In this document: one piece after another, positions 1 to 5,621 of the stretch
Numbering within the stretch: the first letter of the stretch is position 1
How the letters are laid out: each line of letters begins with the position of its first letter
Source: a virus
Length of the DNA stretch: 5,621 nucleotides
IMG/VR virus record: IMGVR_UViG_3300045988_000419
Span: 1 to 5,621 of that record
Strand: one strand, 5' to 3'
The notes under the pieces: generated by a model
The model's database searches: none
Told to the model about the DNA's origin: nothing
The model's input: only the letters and a program-made list of their open reading frames with translations
Translations under genes and position numbers: made by a program

Positions 1-141
1 GATGATAATGCGGCCTTCCTGTTTGCTCTCCGTACTCTCCTGCGCAGAAATAGCGTAAGCCCGGCTCTGAGGCCCTTCTAAGGCGTTTTATGAACTTCTG
101 CACATCCTCATACCATAGCGTTTGATTTGTCTTTAAATCGC
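1..141. repeat. Terminal redundancy copy 1 (identical to 5481-5621); marks circular genome closure
   Basis: Base-by-base reading shows gatgataatgcggccttcctg...ctttaaatcgc at both ends. Confidence 0.97.
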
Positions 142-490
142 CCTTTCTGCCGCTGTATACGCCACCTCTGAAAACTTCACCGGTTTCGTGGTTGATGCAT
201 GGCACATGAGTGTCATCATAAGTTAGCGTAAGAAAATATACACTATTTGGTATAGATGTTTTTGCTTCCATTTCAATTCTTGCCGCCCAGTCTTGCCGTT
301 TCCGGATTCTACATCCGATGCATTGCCCGCACGGTACTAGCATAACGTCTTTTCGATAGATAAGGTCTTCGTATGTCAAGTTCGGATTATGTGCTCTTTC
401 AAGCGCAAAGCGCCTGAGCGTGTATACATGCCCAGACGCTTCACGGTCTTCTGGCACATAAAACCGGATTAACGGTTTATAACATGCCAT
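1..490 (-). CDS. VP4: Replication initiation protein VP4 (HUH rolling-circle endonuclease), N-terminal part. The ORF runs off the window start and continues at 5480 because the genome is circular. The full gene is 490..1 joined to 5480..4954, 338 aa.
   Basis: Manual translation from ATG 490..488 gives MACYKPLIRFYVPEDREASGHVYTLRRFALERAHNPNLTYEDLIYRKDVMLVPCGQCIGCRIRKRQDWAARIEMEAKTSIPNSVYFLTLTYDDTHVPC... with no stop down to base 1. It is in frame with the 4954..5583 ORF (490-103=387, divisible by 3). It carries a CGQCIGC Cys cluster, RCR motif I FLTLTY (about 218-235) and an HYH motif at 2-10. An AGGAG SD lies at 503..499, 8 nt upstream of the ATG. Confidence 0.93.
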   Translation of the reverse strand, partial: MACYKPLIRFYVPEDREASGHVYTLRRFALERAHNPNLTYEDLIYRKDVMLVPCGQCIGCRIRKRQDWAARIEMEAKTSIPNSVYFLTLTYDDTHVPCINHETGEVFRGGVYSGRKGDLKTNQTLWYEDVQKFIKRLRRASEPGLRYFCAGEYGEQTGRPHYH

Positions 491-493
491 TGC

Positions 494-1351
494 TTATTCT
501 CCTGTATCTCCGTTCAGATCCTGTCGTCTTTTCGCCTTTTCCTGAAGAGTTTTGCTTACTTTGCCTGCGCTGGTTTTCGCCACATCGGTGACTTTGTCTT
601 CGATGTTTTTTTCGGCCTCTGCTTTCTGTTCCTGGTCTTCTTCGGTTTTGTTGATAATCGTTCCCACGTCTTTGGCCAGTTGCTGAAAGCTGTACCCGCT
701 GTTAAATCCTTGCTGGTAATAGTCACTGACTGCGCTTGCAATGTTGTGGCTCGCATTTGCGCTGAGCTGGAAATTGCTACTTAGTGCACTTCCTCCTAGT
801 GCGCTTGTGCTTCCCAGTCCCATACTTGCCGCTCCGATTGTGCCCGCACCGCCTCCCGGTGTGCTTGCGCCTCCGTTCATTGCCGCCAAGATTGGGTTGA
901 TTCCTGCGGCCCTCATGTCTTTCACGGCTCTTTGGTAGGCTGTACTGCTCATGTGCTCTTGCCAATCGCGGTTTGCTTGAGCTTCTGCGGAGTTGTAGGC
1001 CATTGCCTCCTGCATCATTTTGCGGTTAAATTTGCCTTGATAATTCATCATGTTTCGGTTTAGCATGTATTGCAGTCCGCTTGAACCCAAGTTTCCGAGT
1101 CTCTGTAAAACCATGCTTCCGAGGTTTACGACGTCGTTACTTCCTCCGATGCTTCCGCCGATTCCCCAGCCTTCGCTTCCGCTTTCGCTGTGCCCTCCGC
1201 CCTGCGTGTATCCATTGTTGCCGCTTGTCGTTAAGGTTGTGTTGCCGCTTGTGTCATAGTATAGCTGCTCGTTTTGTTTTCGGTTTTGCCAAGAGTTCCA
1301 CAGATTGACACCTGCGTTTATGAGGCTTGGCACTACGCTCCAAAAACCCAT
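494..1351 (-). CDS. VP2: Minor capsid / DNA pilot protein VP2 (285 aa)
   Basis: It sits directly downstream of VP1, the typical gokushovirus position. It has a Gly/Ser-rich low-complexity core, an N-terminus MGFWSVVPSLINAG, and a conserved-looking STAYQRAVKDMRAAGINPILA segment typical of gokushovirus VP2. Its TAA stop (494-496) is 3 nt before the VP4 ATG. Confidence 0.88.
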   Translation of the reverse strand: MGFWSVVPSLINAGVNLWNSWQNRKQNEQLYYDTSGNTTLTTSGNNGYTQGGGHSESGSEGWGIGGSIGGSNDVVNLGSMVLQRLGNLGSSGLQYMLNRNMMNYQGKFNRKMMQEAMAYNSAEAQANRDWQEHMSSTAYQRAVKDMRAAGINPILAAMNGGASTPGGGAGTIGAASMGLGSTSALGGSALSSNFQLSANASHNIASAVSDYYQQGFNSGYSFQQLAKDVGTIINKTEEDQEQKAEAEKNIEDKVTDVAKTSAGKVSKTLQEKAKRRQDLNGDTGE

Positions 1352-1359
1352 AATACAAT

Positions 1360-1382
1360 AGCCCGAGGTATTCCCCCGGGCT
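1360..1382 (-). promoter_or_regulatory. Intercistronic hairpin between VP1 and VP2 (candidate attenuator or split ribosome-binding site)
   Basis: The minus strand reads AGAAAGGGGGA-AGCCCGGGG-GAATA-CCUCGGGCU-AUUGUAUU-AUG. This is a 9-bp stem (one G-U) that sits between the only SD-like element (AAGGGGGA, 1390..1383) and the VP2 ATG (1351). It is followed by moderately U-rich sequence. Confidence 0.5.
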
Positions 1383-1393
1383 TCCCCCTTTCT

Positions 1394-3046
1394 TTAGTGA
1401 TGATCTACCAGACCCGGGACGCTATAGAGCGGCATCGGCCGGACAGTTGTGTTTTTCACGAGGATGTCCATGATGAACTGTGGTTCGTCCTGAATTGCGA
1501 GAGTACGTTGAATTTCAGCTTTGCCCTCTTTCATCCACTCCTGAGAGAGCACAGGCACTGAGCTGTATTCGTCGGCATAGTGCCAAGAGTCCAGTGTGCC
1601 GTTTGCGTTGCTTCTGAAGAGGCCACAGACGCGGTTCGGTTTCATCCTGTATTCGCTCCATGCTTCCTGATAGCCGAAGGCCTCTTCGTCGGATGCTTCC
1701 GCTGTTGCGTAAAGCTCCTTTTTCAGTACTGCCTGCTCGCCCAAGTTTGCGAATACCGGGAAGTAGAAATCCAGCTTGTTTTTCCGACTCCACATCCGCT
1801 CGATGCCCTGTTGATATGTGTGGTCGTGTCGCACGCAGCACACACCGATGACCCAGCCGTGTTCTTCGAAGGACTTCGTAAAAGAACTTTTGCCAAATCC
1901 GGTTACGGACACTGCCGCTACGTTGCCCTGCGGGCTTTCCGTGGTCGTGCCGCTCGTCTGCACAACTTGGTTAATGTTGATCATGACCCGGTCGCCGCCC
2001 AGATACTCCGGAATCTGTGCTGTTTTATCGCTGATGCGCGTCCGGAATAGACTGTAAATTTGCTCACGATACCGAGAGCCGCCCCGTGCCAGCTCTTCGA
2101 AGTACTTTTGCACCTGAAAAGCTTTTCTCAGTTCGTTGATGCTTGTTGCGTTGACTTTCGAAAGGTCCGCGCCTAGGTAGGCTTGTTTATCACCCGTGGC
2201 GAAGATCGCTCTATTGTCGGGCATGCCGAGTATGCCCGCTGTGCCGGTCCGTTCGATTGTTCCGTTGTATATTGCGTAAAGCGATGAGTCCCATTCGGTT
2301 TTTACGTTGGCGTTTTTGTAACCTTTAATGGGCGCGTTACCGCTCAATGGAATTCTAACCGGGTCTCCCGCTCTCTGAGGCGAAGGGAGACTGCTGGAGA
2401 AGTAGTCGTGAAAGCGGTTGACAGGAAGAGGACGACCGCCCGTATATGCTTGCTGGAGAATCTTTTCGATGTTGTCCCCTGCGTCGTCCTTGTAGTCCAC
2501 AGTTGCGTCTGTCACACTGTTGATTGCCGGATTGTCCACGTTCTGGTCTCTGAACCACTCATTCCAGATTTTCACATACGCACGAATTGGCAGTGCGTTG
2601 ATTTCTGTTTTCTTCCCTGCGCCGACAAATTTGGTCGGAATGCCCATATAGTCGAGGATGCTGGCTTCTTTCGGCAGTTTGTCGGTGTCGCTTGTACCCG
2701 TGATTTTGATAGTCGGAACAGTGTACTCGACTGCCTGCACCCACGGCTCATCGGTGACTTCGCCCATGAATTCCTTCCAATGCTCCCACAGAATACGGTT
2801 CGGAACAAAGAAATAATAGTAATCCAAGTATGCGTTGTCCATTACCGGAAAAATCGGTGTGGTCATACGAATAATTGCACTCTGGTCTACAGAGAAGGTA
2901 TCGCCGGGCAAGACTTCATCCACATAAAAAGGAATGAGCTTGCCAGCGTCGAATGTTAACTTAATATCTTGGTCGCGCTTGAAACGGCTTCGCGTGATTT
3001 CCAGTGCTGGCACTTGGTTAAAGTGCGCCTCATTGTTGCGTTTCAT
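1394..3046 (-). CDS. VP1: Major capsid protein VP1 (phiX174 F-like jelly-roll, 550 aa)
   Basis: It carries hallmark gokushovirus VP1 motifs: HFNQVPALEITRSRF, GKLIPFYVDEVLPGDTF, PVMDNAYLDYYYFFVPNRILWEHWKEFMGE, INELRKAFQVQKYFEELARGGSRY and IPEYLGG. A GGAGG SD lies 7 nt upstream of the ATG (3046..3044). Confidence 0.97.
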   Translation of the reverse strand: MKRNNEAHFNQVPALEITRSRFKRDQDIKLTFDAGKLIPFYVDEVLPGDTFSVDQSAIIRMTTPIFPVMDNAYLDYYYFFVPNRILWEHWKEFMGEVTDEPWVQAVEYTVPTIKITGTSDTDKLPKEASILDYMGIPTKFVGAGKKTEINALPIRAYVKIWNEWFRDQNVDNPAINSVTDATVDYKDDAGDNIEKILQQAYTGGRPLPVNRFHDYFSSSLPSPQRAGDPVRIPLSGNAPIKGYKNANVKTEWDSSLYAIYNGTIERTGTAGILGMPDNRAIFATGDKQAYLGADLSKVNATSINELRKAFQVQKYFEELARGGSRYREQIYSLFRTRISDKTAQIPEYLGGDRVMININQVVQTSGTTTESPQGNVAAVSVTGFGKSSFTKSFEEHGWVIGVCCVRHDHTYQQGIERMWSRKNKLDFYFPVFANLGEQAVLKKELYATAEASDEEAFGYQEAWSEYRMKPNRVCGLFRSNANGTLDSWHYADEYSSVPVLSQEWMKEGKAEIQRTLAIQDEPQFIMDILVKNTTVRPMPLYSVPGLVDHH

Positions 3047-3534
3047 TACTCACCCTCCTTTTTGGCGTTATTTTCAGGTGGCTTTTCAAGTGGATTTTCC
3101 TTTAAAATGTCCAATTTCTTGGCCCATTCCACTGTGCCGTAGTCGTGGATGAATTTATCCACGTCGTTGTCGAACTTCTGCTTGGTTTCGCTCGGGAGCT
3201 TATCCCAAGTTTGCTCGGCCTGGATCATGAGATTCTGAGCTTCTGCCAGCGTTGTTGGCATTTCCGTATAGTCTACCGGTTCGCCGTCTCCCAGACTTGC
3301 GCCCAGTTTCTGTGCCGCTTCCGGATCAAAAGTGGCTCTCCTGATGATGTTTTCGATTTTAGTCTCTTCAAGGAAACTTTGGATTTCTGCATCCCTGTCG
3401 ATTTCCTCATCGAGAGCCAGTTCCTTTTTGCCTTCGCTGTTGTACTTCCACCGAAAAGTGCGCCGGATTTTATCACCCGACGCACTTGCCTCTTTCGGCA
3501 CTGCACTTGCGGTCGTGAGTCCGAATATCTTCAT
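3046..3534 (-). CDS. VP3: Internal scaffolding protein VP3 (162 aa)
   Basis: It is acidic and helical, immediately upstream of VP1, with a VDYTEMPTTLAEAQNLMIQAEQTWDKLPSETKQKFDNDVDKFI block resembling the Chlamydia-phage-type scaffold family. A GGAG SD lies 7 nt upstream. Its stop overlaps the VP1 start (TAATG at 3048..3044). Confidence 0.87.
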   Translation of the reverse strand: MKIFGLTTASAVPKEASASGDKIRRTFRWKYNSEGKKELALDEEIDRDAEIQSFLEETKIENIIRRATFDPEAAQKLGASLGDGEPVDYTEMPTTLAEAQNLMIQAEQTWDKLPSETKQKFDNDVDKFIHDYGTVEWAKKLDILKENPLEKPPENNAKKEGE

Positions 3535-3782
3535 TACTTGTCTCCTTCGCTGGCGTTGTTCGGCTTACCGTTACAGACTTTCCTCTGGGTGTTGGTGAAA
3601 GTGCCCTTGTCTTCGTCGAACTGGCCGATCTTGTAAAGTGCATAGTCTTCCGGTTCCTGTGCCATCTGACCCGTTTTGCAGGCCGCACAGAACGCTCGCG
3701 TTGCCGTTCCGTCGTTGATCGATTCGAACATCCCCATGAATTTCTGTGCCACATAGTCATATACGCTGTACATGTTCATCAT
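3534..3782 (-). CDS. Small conserved gokushovirus non-structural protein (VP5-like, 82 aa); function uncertain
   Basis: The pattern MYSVYDYVAQKF..F.S.NDGTATRAF.....PEDYALYKIGQFDEDKGTF matches, from memory, a small protein family found just upstream of VP3 in many gokushoviruses. An AAAGGAGAA SD lies 7 nt upstream. Its stop overlaps the VP3 start (TAATG at 3536..3532). Confidence 0.8.
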   Translation of the reverse strand: MMNMYSVYDYVAQKFMGMFESINDGTATRAFCAACKTGQMAQEPEDYALYKIGQFDEDKGTFTNTQRKVCNGKPNNASEGDK

Positions 3783-3847
3783 TTCTTTTCTCCTTTCATG
3801 ATTGCGAAATAGGCCACTGCAGTGACGGCCCAGACGAGACTGATCAT
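3779..3847 (-). CDS. Hypothetical 22-aa hydrophobic mini-protein MISLVWAVTAVAYFAIMKGEKK (speculative)
   Basis: Hand-translated; it is below the ORF-track length cutoff. It nearly fills the only gap (3783-3855) between two genes. It has about 16 hydrophobic residues followed by a KGEKK tail. Its TGA stop overlaps the next ATG (ATGA at 3782..3779), and its ATG lies 8 nt after the upstream stop codon. It has no SD of its own. Confidence 0.3.
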   Translation of the reverse strand: MISLVWAVTAVAYFAIMKGEKK

Positions 3848-3855
3848 AAATTCAT

Positions 3856-4038
3856 TCAGAGTCTGATTCCTCCTCTCATAGGCTTTGCTGTGAGGTTGAT
3901 ACTCTTCGTTTGGTTGGCCGTCTTGTTGTAGATTTTGGCATCCTTACGACGGCGGACTTTGTTTCTCTTGCTCAACTTCTTCACACCTCCATTCTTCAGA
4001 TCCTCTTCCAATTTCTCTTCGGATTTGCTCCATTTCAA
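3856..4038 (-). CDS. Small highly basic DNA-binding/packaging protein (phiX174 J-like / gokushovirus ORF8-like). The coordinates give the maximal ORF, and the true start is probably internal.
   Basis: The C-terminal part, KKLSKRNKVRRRKDAKIYNKTANQTKSINLTAKPMRGGIRL, is very Lys/Arg-rich. From memory, the PMRGGIRL ending recurs in small basic microvirus proteins. The track start at 4038 is a TTG. Alternative starts are GTG 3984..3982 and TTG 3975..3973, both downstream of a GGAGG at 3990..3986. There is no in-frame ATG before the C-terminal Met. It overlaps the 88-aa ORF in another frame. Confidence 0.62.
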   Translation of the reverse strand: MKWSKSEEKLEEDLKNGGVKKLSKRNKVRRRKDAKIYNKTANQTKSINLTAKPMRGGIRL

Positions 4039-4210
4039 TACTATTCGCGAAAGCCTTCTTTTGAAATGCCATGTCGATGTAAAACTTTGCGTCTTCGATT
4101 GTGGCCGCTTGCTGGCTCAGTTTGTAGGCGTTTTTGATTTCCTTGTAAGTCCTTGCAAGTGTCGTCCTTAGAGTCTCGTCGGACTGGTCTTGTACGCTCC
4201 AGCATTTCAT
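3944..4210 (-). CDS. Hypothetical protein, 88 aa, predicted helical; no recognisable family
   Basis: It has an ATG start at 4210..4208, preceded by a strong GAGGAGG SD (4223..4217) with a 6-nt spacer. It is on the same strand and in operon context with the other genes, and its charged, helical composition is plausible for a real protein. Confidence 0.68.
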   Translation of the reverse strand: MKCWSVQDQSDETLRTTLARTYKEIKNAYKLSQQAATIEDAKFYIDMAFQKKAFANSIEMEQIRREIGRGSEEWRCEEVEQEKQSPPS

Positions 4211-4221
4211 GTGATGCCTCC

Positions 4222-4347
4222 TCAGCTCATGTTGTTGGCGTTCTCGTTCTTATCTTCCAGCATGTGATAAATTTTATCAAGGACTGCGAGGATTTCGCGC
4301 AGTTTGCTAAAGATAGCGTTGACTTCTTTAAAGGTCGTTGTTATCAT
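4222..4347 (-). CDS. Hypothetical 41-aa protein MITTTFKEVNAIFSKLREILAVLDKIYHMLEDKNENANNMS (speculative first cistron)
   Basis: Hand-translated. The ATG at 4347..4345 is preceded by GAGGGGG, and the predicted transcription start is only about 8 nt upstream. The TGA stop (4224..4222) overlaps the SD of the next gene. The sequence looks like an amphipathic helix. Confidence 0.38.
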   Translation of the reverse strand: MITTTFKEVNAIFSKLREILAVLDKIYHMLEDKNENANNMS

Positions 4348-4361
4348 CCCCCTCGTAACCC

Positions 4362-4390
4362 ATTATACTACTGCCGCCGTTTTTTTTCAA
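4362..4390 (-). promoter_or_regulatory. Sigma70/SigA-type promoter for the whole minus-strand operon
   Basis: The minus strand reads TTGAAA (4390..4385), then a 17-nt spacer AAAAACGGCGGCAGTAG, then TATAAT (4367..4362). This places the start about 7 nt downstream (near 4355), just ahead of the first SD and ATG. Confidence 0.6.
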
Positions 4391-4440
4391 CCGCGCAGAA
4401 TAGCCAAGGTTGCGCAAGCAATTTTGGGCGTTCTGCGCGG
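4391..4440. promoter_or_regulatory. 10-bp perfect inverted repeat abutting the -35 box (candidate operator or cruciform)
   Basis: ccgcgcagaa (4391-4400) and ttctgcgcgg (4431-4440) are exact reverse complements separated by 30 nt. The spacer contains the palindrome ttgcgcaa (4410-4417) and a ccaa/ttgg pairing. Confidence 0.7.
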
Positions 4441-4468
4441 TTTGCCCGCTGCAGGCGAAACTTTGAGT

Positions 4469-4495
4469 TTTCAACACTTTCAACACTTTCAACAG
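4469..4495. repeat. Tandem 9-bp iterons: TTTCAACAC, TTTCAACAC, TTTCAACAG
   Basis: Three head-to-tail units occupy 4469-4477, 4478-4486 and 4487-4495. Confidence 0.9.
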
Positions 4496-4510
4496 GTTTT
4501 CCACAAAATG

Positions 4511-4532
4511 TTGCACAAAGGATTTTGTGCAA
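4511..4532. other. 9-bp hairpin between the two iteron clusters
   Basis: ttgcacaaa (4511-4519) pairs with tttgtgcaa (4524-4532), with a 4-nt loop ggat. A mutually exclusive 8-bp pairing is possible between cacaaaat (4502-4509) and attttgtg (4522-4529). Confidence 0.75.
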
Positions 4533-4543
4533 ATTGCTATATT

Positions 4544-4581
4544 CTCAACAATTCAACAATCTTTCAACAAAGTTTTCAACC
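4544..4581. repeat. Second cluster of the same motif: CTCAACA, TTCAACA, TTCAACA, TTCAACC at 8-12 bp spacing
   Basis: Copies lie at 4544-4550, 4552-4558, 4563-4569 and 4575-4581, all in the same orientation as the 4469-4495 array. Further copies lie at 4629-4635 and at the -35 box (4386-4392). Confidence 0.85.
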
Positions 4582-4694
4582 TTCTTTTGTGCGCTTTTTT
4601 TACGATGATATGTAAGAAAATGGCACTATTCAACATTTCCACACTCTCTACTACTACGGCTACAACAAATAAAATATAATAATAACTGCGAATT

Positions 4695-4753
4695 CGTATA
4701 CGCACGCGCGTGCGCGCGCGCGTTTCGCGTGCGTGCATGTGTGTGTGTATGCG
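4695..4753. repeat. Two perfect 28-nt alternating pyrimidine-purine tracts (CG/CA/TG/TA dinucleotides) separated by TTT; Z-DNA-prone low complexity
   Basis: 4695-4722 is cgtatacgcacgcgcgtgcgcgcgcgcg and 4726-4753 is cgcgtgcgtgcatgtgtgtgtgtatgcg. Every position alternates Y-R. The region contains a 14-bp perfect palindrome, cgcacgcgcgtgcg (4701-4714), and a 9-bp stem between 4700-4708 and 4726-4734. Confidence 0.9.
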
Positions 4754-4783
4754 AATACCTATGTGTGAGCAAAGCGAACGCAC

Positions 4784-4802
4784 CAACGCCGTATAGGCGT
4801 TG
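4784..4802. other. Small 7-bp hairpin
   Basis: caacgcc (4784-4790) pairs with ggcgttg (4796-4802), with loop gtata. Confidence 0.6.
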
Positions 4803-4814
4803 TGGTATGGAGGT

Positions 4815-4847
4815 TCGGGGGGTAGCGGCAGAACGCTCACCCCCCGA
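4815..4847. other. GC-rich hairpin (G-run / C-run stem)
   Basis: tcggggggt (4815-4823) pairs with accccccga (4839-4847). After a 1-nt bulge (c4838), agcg (4824-4827) pairs with cgct (4834-4837). The loop is gcagaa. There is no flanking U-tract on either strand. Confidence 0.75.
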
Positions 4848-4865
4848 TAATATTCTTGGTAATAG

Positions 4866-4894
4866 AAAACCCCATGTTTCTAACATGGAGTTTT
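4866..4894 (-). terminator. Rho-independent (bidirectional-looking) terminator ending the operon
   Basis: The minus-strand RNA reads AAAACUCCAUGUU-AGA-AACAUGGGGUUUU followed by CUAUU. This gives a 13-bp stem (one G-U) with a 3-nt loop and a U-tract. It lies about 60 nt downstream of the VP4 stop. Confidence 0.6.
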
Positions 4895-4904
4895 GTTGTA
4901 AATC

Positions 4905-4952
4905 TGTCAACGGGCCAAGTTGCAGCCTTGTTAGTAACTTGGCCCGTTGACA
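4905..4952 (-). other. 17-bp perfect hairpin starting 2 nt after the VP4 stop (candidate terminator, origin or priming structure)
   Basis: 4905-4921 (tgtcaacgggccaagtt) is the exact reverse complement of 4936-4952, with a 14-nt loop gcagccttgttagt. The mRNA-sense strand carries CAACTTG (4922..4916) at the loop-stem junction. Confidence 0.7.
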
Positions 4953-4953
4953 C

Positions 4954-5621
4954 TTAAATTTTTCCGGATGCTTTCCGGTGCTTCTTGATTCGGTCTTCTT
5001 GTCCCTTTAGATACTCTTCAATACTAACGTTAGTACGTCCATATTTATCCTTACAGGCGTCTATTGCTTTAGCTTGTCGCGCCTCTTTTAAGGCCCAAAC
5101 TCTGCGTATGTCCTTTTCTTCCATCTGCTTTTCAAAATACCGTGGTATTTGTGCTCTCCGGCCCCCCGAGAGTTGCACATAGCCTTGCGTCCAGATTTCT
5201 TCTTCGTGTTCAAGATAGTATTGCTGACCTATACCCGGGTGTAAGCTCATCCTGCAAAATGGTGGTTGTAAGCCGTTGCGGATGTGAGCTTGTGTTTCCT
5301 CGTCCACCTTTTTTGTGACGTATCCTGCCACATAGCTGAAGGTTGTAAAGTCGTTTGTACAGGCTAAATTGTGTATCCCATATGTCCATAGTTTTGTGAT
5401 ACGCTCGTCTGTGTAGTATCCTTCTTTGCTGAGAAGTCGGTACGGCTTGAGTTTCTCCGGAAAATAGTTAAAAAGTATAAGATGATAATGCGGCCTTCCT
5501 GTTTGCTCTCCGTACTCTCCTGCGCAGAAATAGCGTAAGCCCGGCTCTGAGGCCCTTCTAAGGCGTTTTATGAACTTCTGCACATCCTCATACCATAGCG
5601 TTTGATTTGTCTTTAAATCGC
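4954..5621 (-). CDS. VP4: Replication initiation protein VP4, C-terminal part. The same gene as 1..490, and 5481-5621 duplicates 1-141.
   Basis: The ORF-track entry 4954..5583 begins at an internal GTG, which is an artefact of linearisation. It contains HUH motif II (RPHYHLILFN) and motif III YVAGYVTKK (5308-5334), with two Tyr spaced Y-x-x-x-Y as in the phiX174 gene A protein. The stop is TAA at 4954-4956. Confidence 0.93.
   Translation of the reverse strand, partial: DLKTNQTLWYEDVQKFIKRLRRASEPGLRYFCAGEYGEQTGRPHYHLILFNYFPEKLKPYRLLSKEGYYTDERITKLWTYGIHNLACTNDFTTFSYVAGYVTKKVDEETQAHIRNGLQPPFCRMSLHPGIGQQYYLEHEEEIWTQGYVQLSGGRRAQIPRYFEKQMEEKDIRRVWALKEARQAKAIDACKDKYGRTNVSIEEYLKGQEDRIKKHRKASGKI
5481..5621. 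repeat. Terminal redundancy copy 2 (identical to 1-141)
   Basis: Same as copy 1. The unit length is 5,480 nt. Confidence 0.97.

Follow-up and report, generated by a model that had tools for sequence, protein, structure and literature searches.

Why would a single-stranded DNA (ssDNA) phage keep 606 nt of apparently non-coding DNA in a genome otherwise filled with genes? The question is raised by positions 4348-4953 of a 5,621-nt stretch of viral DNA, IMG/VR record IMGVR_UViG_3300045988_000419, analysed here over its positions 1 to 5,621 (the window). This block makes up 11% of the genome, is its sole large gap and is situated between the stop codon of the replication gene (Rep, VP4) and the promoter of two small open reading frames (ORFs); the - strand carries every gene of the window. 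The original prediction, made from the letters alone, took the block for a replication origin and control region and for a candidate undescribed cis-acting module. Comparative evidence, namely selection on non-coding DNA, an oriC-like architecture and the hallmarks of an HUH nick site, bears out this reading as a whole and makes it more specific. On balance, it is probable that the block combines a rolling-circle origin, a single-strand signal and a mimic of the host chromosomal origin (oriC), which would recruit the host initiator DnaA to the replicative form, suggesting that this phage may use its host's own replication initiator.

The block recurs widely among relatives of the window. Its centre matches 38 GenBank records of gut Gokushovirinae (68-86% identity, mostly unannotated), more than 120 IMG/VR contigs of various studies, mostly microvirus genomes of 5.2-6.2 kb, contain a 17-mer taken from it, and its core is common to more than 140 independent gut gokushovirus genomes. 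Since the same architecture and junctions recur in these records and contigs, the block is not the assembly chimera that the original prediction had allowed for. In pairwise comparisons of genomes (2346 pairs), identity is 81% for the 225-nt core, compared with 65% for VP1 DNA and 43% at four-fold degenerate VP1 sites, and the core lies above the four-fold sites in every pair. As these genomes had been picked by a word inside the core, the comparison was repeated on genomes picked by VP1 similarity alone. Identity was then 68% for the module and 50% for four-fold sites, the module scoring higher in 92% of pairs. Judged by these comparisons, the core is under purifying selection as non-coding DNA. 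Indeed, no ORF inside the block gave a Pfam match and, of 93 related genomes, 10% at most keep any given frame open across the conserved core; a hidden gene was thus rejected, in agreement with the predicted lack of a credible ORF. Folded as ssDNA, the block reaches -127.1 kcal/mol on the + strand (z -7.4) and -116.3 kcal/mol on the - strand (z -6.4) relative to dinucleotide shuffles, bearing out its predicted structured nature. The covariance scan proposed alongside gave only sub-threshold Rfam matches, none at gathering score (mir-3149 and mir-297 on the CG/TG repeats, 4692-4756; a greA leader at 4267-4371 on the - strand, E 0.057), which were judged compositional or chance. As no tRNA or tmRNA was found in a scan of the sequence either, a structured RNA was rejected.

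The conserved core is built like a Firmicute chromosome origin. Its distal part consists of two arrays of DnaA boxes, all in the same direction. TTTTCCACA at 4497-4505 in array A fits the stringent DnaA-box consensus TTWTNCACA perfectly, and the third box of array B is the canonical TTATCCACA in many relatives. Array A is conserved in 92 unique cores and the same sequence is present in a Ruminococcus oriC. The 8-mer T[CT]TC[AC]ACA has seven copies on the + strand, all in the block, and none on the - strand of the genome. An arrangement of iteron cluster, hairpin and iteron cluster had been predicted here; the repeats are indeed present at 4468-4581, but these "iterons" are, by their sequence, variants of the host DnaA box and not sites of a phage initiator. 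Between the arrays stands a palindrome holding two inverted box-like 9-mers with one mismatch each, TGTTGCACA (+) and ATTTGCACA (-). It is kept in one subgroup only, and the KX513868-like subgroup has another hairpin.

Beyond the arrays, the core follows the basal unwinding system (BUS) of Firmicute dnaA-dnaN origins (incC/oriC2; Richardson 2016/2019, Pelliciari 2021, Winterhalter 2023) in parts, order, orientation and spacing: like these origins it has distal box arrays, two abutting proximal boxes of the same orientation, a (CTA)n run in the top strand and an AT-rich element. The published BUS table is written 3'-5' and was converted to the top strand for comparison. It then reads TTATCCACA AATCCACA GGCC CTACTATTACTTCTACTA TTTTTT for B. 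subtilis (trio stretch also given as CTACTATTACTT; top strand confirmed from an independent source), TTATCAACA AATCCACA CTCC CTACTACTATTAC for C. acetobutylicum and TTATTAACA TATCAACA AGCC CTACTACTAC for C. botulinum, the distance between first box and first trio being 12 nt in all three; the trio region of C. difficile is CACCTACTACTATTACTAC. The window reads TATTCAACA TTTCCACA CTCT CTACTACTACGGCTA and then AT-rich DNA at 4627-4686. A BUS box may differ from TTATCCACA at no more than two positions and lie no more than 16 bp upstream of the trios; ATTTCCACA (4635-4643) has two mismatches and is 4 nt away. The second tandem box, for which up to four mismatches are allowed and which should abut as 9 + 8 nt, is TATTCAACA with three mismatches, joined to TTTCCACA. 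The spacing of about 12-13 nt from box to first trio, with a 4-nt G+C-rich gap, is matched by 8 + 4 = 12 nt. At least three trios (3'-NAN-5', preferably 3'-GAT-5') are expected on the strand opposite the TTATCCACA reading and stand at 4648-4656 and 4660, and both the AT-rich element and the distal box subregion (4468-4505, 4542-4581) are in place. A chromosomal BUS is located beside dnaA/dnaN, and the phage element between Rep and small phage ORFs, which marks it as either a mimic or a captured copy rather than the origin of a chromosome.

As published, the loose BUS rule does not discriminate (about five matches per shuffled genome), and a strict Firmicute-type pattern was used instead, which has one match in the genome and none in 1000 dinucleotide shuffles. 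The distance between the box-trio unit and the 17-mer is constant, at 139 nt, in nearly all of 65 (of 67) loci, and few alignment columns are better conserved than those of the trios, spacer and proximal boxes. The proximal boxes are counterparts of B. subtilis boxes #6/#7, the upstream one being TTATCAACA or TTTTCAACA in relatives. (CTA)3 occurs once in the genome, relatives having 3-6 repeats, and the + strand of 4648-4662 also reads as a DnaD recognition element (5'-TnnT-3' repeats). The AT-rich stretch, predicted at about 4655-4690, was found at 4663-4686; 4669-4685 is entirely A/T and relatives show AAT/ATA runs at that place. We also observed that CTACAACAA, which follows the trios (4660-4672), is nearly invariant (91/93 loci), and that the - strand there reads ACTTGTTGTAG in 79/93 loci, which places a further nick-like motif within the unwinding element, on the strand opposite the first.

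When one genome per prokaryotic species was searched with a 22-mer from the module, nine matches resulted, three of them in DnaA-box clusters of Clostridia. One match lies 45 nt after the dnaA stop codon on a 55.7-kb Ruminococcus contig from a metagenome-assembled genome (MAG), inside a 620-nt dnaA-dnaN spacer whose flanking genes were confirmed by Pfam. This spacer carries 11 TTCAACA and 5 TTCCACA on one strand, in the same TTTCAACA/TTTTCCACA dialect as the phage; its end reads TTTTCCACA GTTTCAACA CCCC CTACTACTACTA and then passes into AT-rich DNA. The phage block is colinear with the last 200 nt of this origin (205 nt aligned, 64% identity, E 3e-9) in the order of boxes, spacer of about 45 nt, proximal boxes, trios and AT-rich DNA, with a spacer of equal length at the place of 4582-4626. 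Given the box dialect and this colinear match, the host is probably a Ruminococcus-like Clostridium. One complete module-bearing microvirus genome (CALBJK010000280, 5840 nt; our L129) was binned into an "uncultured Prevotella" MAG, which is probably an artefact; binning alone is thus not host evidence. The same 17-mer was also observed in TTTTCCACAGG/TTTTCAACAGG box arrays of non-microvirus viral contigs of 6-134 kb from IMG/VR (L046/L119, L079/L111, L094, L103, L117 and L124), beside terminase-like and other phage ORFs, and other phages of these hosts may have DnaA-box clusters too.

At the other end of the block, the hairpin beside the Rep stop codon is a candidate rolling-circle (viral-strand) origin, with a nick predicted between G4930 and T4931 on the + strand. 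The 17-bp hairpin of the original prediction is its perfect stem (4905-4921/4936-4952), which extends to 19 bp with wobble. Of 83 unique loci, 76 have a stem of 12-19 bp with the loop (T)ACTTGAT, followed by TGACAC. The stem arms come in 39 different sequences, whereas the loop is invariant; the loop core CTTG(A/T)TA is CTTGTTA in the window and CTTGATA/CTTGAT in most relatives and Chp2. In an alignment of 18 stems, 91% of cells are paired and 8 of 15 pairs are compensatory, and the covariation score (0.432 vs 0.148 in shuffles) was reached by none of 500 shuffles, with no slid register near it. The phiX174 gpA origin, CAACTTG^ATATTAATAAC, was verified, the origin being annotated at A4306. Rep matched PF23343 (E 7.5e-17), its HUH motif GRPHYHLILF aligns with GRLHFHAVHF of gpA, and its tyrosine motif SYVAGYVTKK corresponds to FYVAKYVNKK of gpA, the two sharing YVAxYVxKK. 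Chp2 (L138, 2908-2960) has a 14-bp stem with the loop TCTACTTGAT and then GTGATA, and SpV4 (L140, about 516-560) and distant environmental gokushoviruses (L194-L206) have the same kind of hairpin, all on the coding strand. By analogy, from the phiX174-like loop, the covarying stem, the shared Rep motifs and the Chp2 and SpV4 hairpins, we infer that this hairpin is the Rep nick site of the subfamily.

The phiX174 gpA origin and the pC194-type double-strand origins share with the phage the CTTG(A/T)TA core and a Rep with an HUH motif and the two-tyrosine motif YVAxYVxKK, but the phage motif lies in the loop of a 12-19-bp intergenic hairpin, whereas the phiX174 origin is inside gene A and, to our knowledge, has no flanking hairpin. 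Conserved-loop hairpins have been reported in other microvirus clades, with function unassigned. Across Gokushovirinae, hairpins were found whose loop is ACTTG(A/T)T and after which comes (G)TGA(C/T)A. In genomes with short intergenic regions, the predicted nick site falls within about 25 nt of the AT-rich element.

The strand on which this hairpin stands was unexpected for the family, in which the nick motif should lie on the packaged strand, assumed to be the coding strand. Throughout the gut clade (genomes whose VP1 is at least about 44% identical to that of the window) it is antisense to all genes, in contrast to phiX174, Chp2 and SpV4, whose motif is on the coding strand. Mismatches in the nick stem are G.T on the hairpin strand 25 times and on the other strand twice, although this reflects few independent events. 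The same bias marks the CG/TG tracts, alternating at 4700-4750, which had been predicted as two Z-DNA-prone tracts. The tracts are real, but they were re-read as the arms of one 31-bp hairpin, and the Z-DNA reading was set aside because the wobble asymmetry is universal: the region folds better on the + strand in 72/72 unique loci, with a median difference of -6.3 kcal/mol, compared with a mean of +0.96 in coding controls, of which 0/264 windows reach -6.3. Over these 72 loci the hairpin has 4.4 G.T pairs on the + strand vs 0.3. Its loop reads TTT or ATTA, and of 89 circular genomes with the module 75 have the hairpin. Alternatively, the hairpin might reflect an antisense RNA containing G.U pairs. 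Four-fold sites are T-rich on the hairpin strand in 41/41 antisense-hairpin genomes, in 5/7 sense-hairpin genomes and in Chp2, a weak and non-independent signal. Across the VP1 genes of the window and L141-L209, four-fold sites of the gut clade are A-rich on the coding strand (mean AT skew +0.42), and those of gokushoviruses with a coding-strand hairpin are mostly T-rich (mean -0.28, 2/7 exceptions; Chp2 -0.32). Taken together, the stem G.T bias, the seven G.T pairs in the 31-bp hairpin and the 72/72 fold bias suggest that it is the strand antisense to the genes which occurs in single-stranded form.

The wobble hairpin is regarded here as a candidate single-strand-stage signal, similar to the single-strand origins (sso) of rolling-circle plasmids. 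In such plasmids the sso is located just upstream of the nick, and with a nick on the + strand the block would occupy this very place. Compared with plasmid sso elements, the phiX174 primosome assembly site and the G4/M13 complementary-strand origins, the phage likewise has a long imperfect one-strand hairpin, just upstream of the predicted nick. No likeness to ssoA motifs such as RSB and CS-6 was noticed, though these motifs were not searched for, and the composition is alternating CG/TG; unlike single-strand origins, the hairpin is missing from about 13 of 89 module genomes.

Combining these elements, we consider the block to be, with good probability, a replication-control region of three cis modules. 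In the first, the hairpin loop CTTG(A/T)TA with TGACAC, the counterpart of phiX174 CAACTTG^ATA, would be nicked by the HUH Rep. As the second, the 31-bp wobble hairpin on the + strand may act as complementary-strand origin. The third is the mimic of a Clostridial dnaA-dnaN origin, about 225 nt long, with eight distal direct boxes, a proximal pair, spacer, trios and AT-rich element. On the double-stranded replicative form, host DnaA would bind the boxes, oligomerise onto the trios and open the AT-rich element (4648-4686), admitting the host helicase-loading machinery (DnaD/DnaB/DnaI-DnaC in Firmicutes), and the phage would thereby gain a host-initiator-dependent origin, beside or aiding Rep-driven rolling-circle replication. 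The opening might serve Rep-independent theta replication and plasmid-like carriage, helicase loading for Rep, or exposure of the nick site. DnaA binding, unwinding and the use made of it are what we infer, because the core has each sequence feature of a Firmicute unwinding system together with distal boxes, is kept by selection, and is most constrained in parts that would serve unwinding and not mere binding.

Several observations weigh against a DnaA-driven origin. Replication of the phiX174 type needs no DnaA. The proximal boxes of the window itself have three and two mismatches to TTATCCACA and its trio run is broken after three repeats. DnaA recognition of the TCAACA variant is a prediction, such boxes being listed in published tables from a search program only, and the host assignment rests on MAGs. 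The invariance of CTACAACAA is unexplained by the oriC model, and the Ruminococcus origin is without it. In L136 (MG945388, flagged UNVERIFIED, about 1290-1500), the DnaA-box/trio cassette is turned round with respect to genes, CG/TG hairpin and Rep hairpin alike, the sole case among about 140 genomes. Finally, sister clades with the same nick hairpin (L157, L165, L186 and L189-192) have no DnaA-box module, nor were box arrays in other dialects found in them, and the module is absent from classical gokushoviruses as well, so that it is a lineage-specific accessory acquisition and not a requirement of the family. One of these sister-clade genomes without DnaA boxes, L186, carries a tandem duplication of about 130 nt (two copies) in its intergenic region.

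The alternative that survives best is single-strand priming, in which the module would act on incoming or displaced ssDNA and not on duplex. The viral strand would show one strand of an "already open" oriC, as the DnaD element (CTA)n or as DnaA-trios, the adjacent hairpin would mimic a double-strand/single-strand junction, and DnaD/DnaB/DnaI would load helicase and primase so that complementary-strand synthesis starts. A strand-specific element of this kind would be expected to keep one orientation, and the module does so with respect to genes and nick hairpin, both in 92/92 loci of the 17-mer set with Rep located and in the VP1-ascertained set, in which the box-trio unit (searched as a regular expression) is present in 45 of 80 genomes and antisense to VP1 in all 45. 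Immediately 3' of the AT-rich stretch, the same strand forms the wobble hairpin, the + strand block has the sso position described above, and published work shows that DnaD binds 5'-TnnT-3' pairs opposite the trios and that its ssDNA binding promotes helicase loading at a single-strand origin. Priming, however, leaves about ten conserved direct DnaA boxes to be accounted for. DnaA recognises its boxes in duplex form, which in ssDNA could be adopted by the central palindrome only, and this palindrome is not conserved across subgroups; moreover, the L136 cassette is inverted. We regard priming as rather unlikely in place of a duplex origin, but the two can coexist.

It is also unlikely, in our view, that the replicative-form copies, with about ten boxes each, act chiefly as a sink which titrates host DnaA and stops or delays initiation of the host chromosome, a means of host takeover and not of phage replication that would resemble datA or cloned-box incompatibility. 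Cloned DnaA-box regions of the B. subtilis origin do inhibit chromosome initiation, and the phage cluster is dense, conserved and, like datA-type loci, outside oriC. But titration needs boxes only, and datA-type loci are without trios and unwinding element, whereas in the phage the proximal boxes, spacer, trios and AT-rich stretch are kept at the spacing and orientation of an unwinding unit.

Transcriptional control seems very improbable. DnaA is a known transcription factor, the boxes stand 80-300 nt upstream of a strong conserved promoter, and by acting on this promoter (4362-4390) or on Rep read-through it could couple expression to the host cell cycle. Yet about 80 nt and two hairpins separate the -35 element from the nearest box, and the trios and AT-rich element, on the far side of the module, would be left without a role.

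We find it scarcely credible that the TTCAACA repeats are phage-specific iterons bound by Rep, VP5 or a small-ORF product, with a coincidental likeness to DnaA boxes. They are direct and regularly spaced, as plasmid iterons are, and VP5 is annotated as a DNA-binding protein; against this, relatives have the canonical TTATCCACA, the downstream geometry is identical to the oriC BUS, the same dialect occurs in a chromosomal dnaA-dnaN origin without phage genes, and the sole replication protein is an HUH Rep, a kind not known to use iterons in this family. The theta origins of pSC101, P1 oriR and R6K, which combine DnaA boxes with iterons, are likewise mobile elements using host boxes. They need their own iteron-binding initiator, however, and none was found in the phage, which has no iterons apart from DnaA boxes and a complete unit of boxes, trios and DNA unwinding element (DUE) instead; the combination of own repeats and own iteron-binding initiator that defines an iteron-type origin is thus absent. 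An assembly chimera or a functionless, neutrally captured piece of host DNA, which the likeness to a host origin might suggest, is practically excluded by the same junctions in the GenBank records and IMG/VR contigs from different studies and by a conservation above four-fold sites in 92-100% of genome pairs.

Other candidates were tried. A plasmid origin was rejected, as blastn of the module against 72,556 plasmids gave no match. Neither the 41-aa nor the 88-aa ORF could be assigned to a Pfam or PHROG family, and both were rejected as DnaA-related factors. Enterobacterial gokushoviruses have a XerCD-dependent lysogeny module with a dif-like 28-mer in the non-coding region; in the window, nothing matched E. 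coli or B. subtilis dif better than shuffles did, and a dif/XerCD attachment site was rejected. The central palindrome could put a box-like sequence in a hairpin stem, like the "A site" of the ABC primosome, but it is not conserved in the KX513868-like subgroup.

The surroundings of these modules complete the picture (Table 1). Identical 141-nt direct repeats at the window ends (1-141 = 5481-5621) make the window a circular genome of 5480 nt with a 141-nt terminal redundancy, and the Rep ORF spans the circular junction. Rep is followed by the 41-aa ORF, the 88-aa ORF, VP5, VP3, VP1 (550 aa, Phage_F) and VP2. The promoter drives the 41-aa ORF (4347..4222) and the downstream genes and is followed by the Shine-Dalgarno sequence GAGGGGGA; in the alignment, relatives have TTGACA at the position of its TTGAAA. 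Every feature listed in the original prediction was found at or near the place given for it, including the promoter (4390-4362), a 10-bp inverted repeat (now 4389-4442), the G-run/C-run hairpin (4815-4847), the small hairpin and the intrinsic terminator, which appears bidirectional. The arms of the inverted repeat vary among relatives with complementarity kept, being CGCGCAGAA..TTCTGCGCG in the window and CCTTTCCAAAG..CTTTGGGAAGG in PV067914/MG945138. A five-way alignment answered whether the block is conserved or an insertion: the core is conserved and the parts stand in the same order in all relatives, and 4760-4895 is an insertion relative to the four aligned relatives and counts as lineage-specific filler, its stretch 4760-4865 holding the small hairpin and the G-run/C-run hairpin. 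A terminator-like element similar to that at 4866-4894 is also present in L136.

Table 1 Features in and around the non-coding block (positions in the window)
Feature	Position	Strand	Remark
Small ORFs, 41 aa and 88 aa	4222-4347 and 3944-4210	-	directly downstream of promoter
Sigma-70/sigma-A type promoter TTGAAA-17-TATAAT	4362..4390	-	11/12 consensus match
Long imperfect hairpin/inverted repeat, 25-nt arms	4389..4442		13 + 10 bp fold
Short GC hairpin TTTGCCCGCTGCAGGCGAA	4441..4459		kept as GGTTTGCCCGCnGCAGGCG in part of clade
Distal DnaA-box array A: TTTTCAACA, CTTTCAACA, CTTTCAACA (9-nt spacing), TTTTCCACA	4468..4505	+	
Palindrome TTGCACAAA-GGAT-TTTGTGCAA	4509..4534		core 4511-4532
Distal DnaA-box array B: TTCTCAACA, AATTCAACA, CTTTCAACA, TTTTCAACC	4542..4581	+	
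Variable spacer of about 45 nt, arrays to proximal boxes	4582..4626		small hairpin 4595-4620
Proximal tandem DnaA boxes TATTCAACA + TTTCCACA	4627..4643	+	9 + 8 nt, abutting
4-nt C-rich spacer CTCT	4644..4647	+	CTCC in most relatives and C. acetobutylicum
CTA CTA CTA CGG CTA	4648..4662		complement = DnaA-trio 3'-GAT-5' on - strand
Nearly invariant CAACAA, then AT-rich candidate DNA unwinding element	4663..4686		
31-bp hairpin from CG/TG tracts	4692-4722/4726-4756	+	7 G.T pairs; full pairing on + only
Small hairpin	4784-4802		inside lineage-specific insertion
G-run/C-run hairpin	4815-4823/4839-4847		inside lineage-specific insertion
Bidirectional intrinsic-terminator-like hairpin AAAACCCCATGTT-TCT-AACATGGAGTTTT	4866-4894		downstream of Rep
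Rep-proximal hairpin, 19-bp stem, loop AGCCTTGTTA (4924-4933), then TGACAC	4905..4953	+	beside Rep stop codon
Rep (VP4) gene	490..1 joined to 5480..4954	-	3' part 4954..5480; HUH domain

Searches of the literature library at hand found nothing linking microviruses or gokushoviruses to DnaA, DnaA boxes, oriC or DnaA-trios and no reported negative-sense microvirus, and the block is not described in the published microvirus genomics examined. The type of element is known. What seems to be new is that a rolling-circle ssDNA phage carries it complete and conserved, and that the nick hairpin has its polarity reversed. Unlike a Firmicute oriC, the phage element resides in a 5.5-kb ssDNA phage, between Rep and structural genes, measures only about 225 nt with no second (rpmH-dnaA) box cluster found in the genome, has all its distal boxes in the same direction and a short trio run (3-5 repeats), and continues from the trios into the invariant CAACAA, which is absent from host origins. 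A bolder and tentative possibility is that the gut clade carries a working host-type origin, which would make the phage a DnaA-controlled mini-chromosome with integrase-free, plasmid-like carriage beside rolling-circle replication, and that it packages the non-coding strand, as negative-sense microviruses; the latter is proposed because the nick hairpin and every wobble-dependent hairpin are antisense to the genes.

Gokushoviruses are among the most abundant phages of human and animal guts, and their hosts, replication origins and means of persistence are largely unknown. The CTTGATA-loop hairpin offers a testable Rep nick site for the whole subfamily, its reversed polarity casts doubt on coding-strand packaging as a rule for all microviruses, and the box dialect is a host clue pointing to Ruminococcus-like Clostridia. 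For replication biologists, the element may be useful as a naturally minimised box-trio-DUE unit of about 225 nt, selected outside a chromosome. If the conserved host-oriC mimic is true, a minimal ssDNA phage would depend on or manipulate host DnaA, and the mimic would offer a concrete mechanism for long-term carriage without integration.

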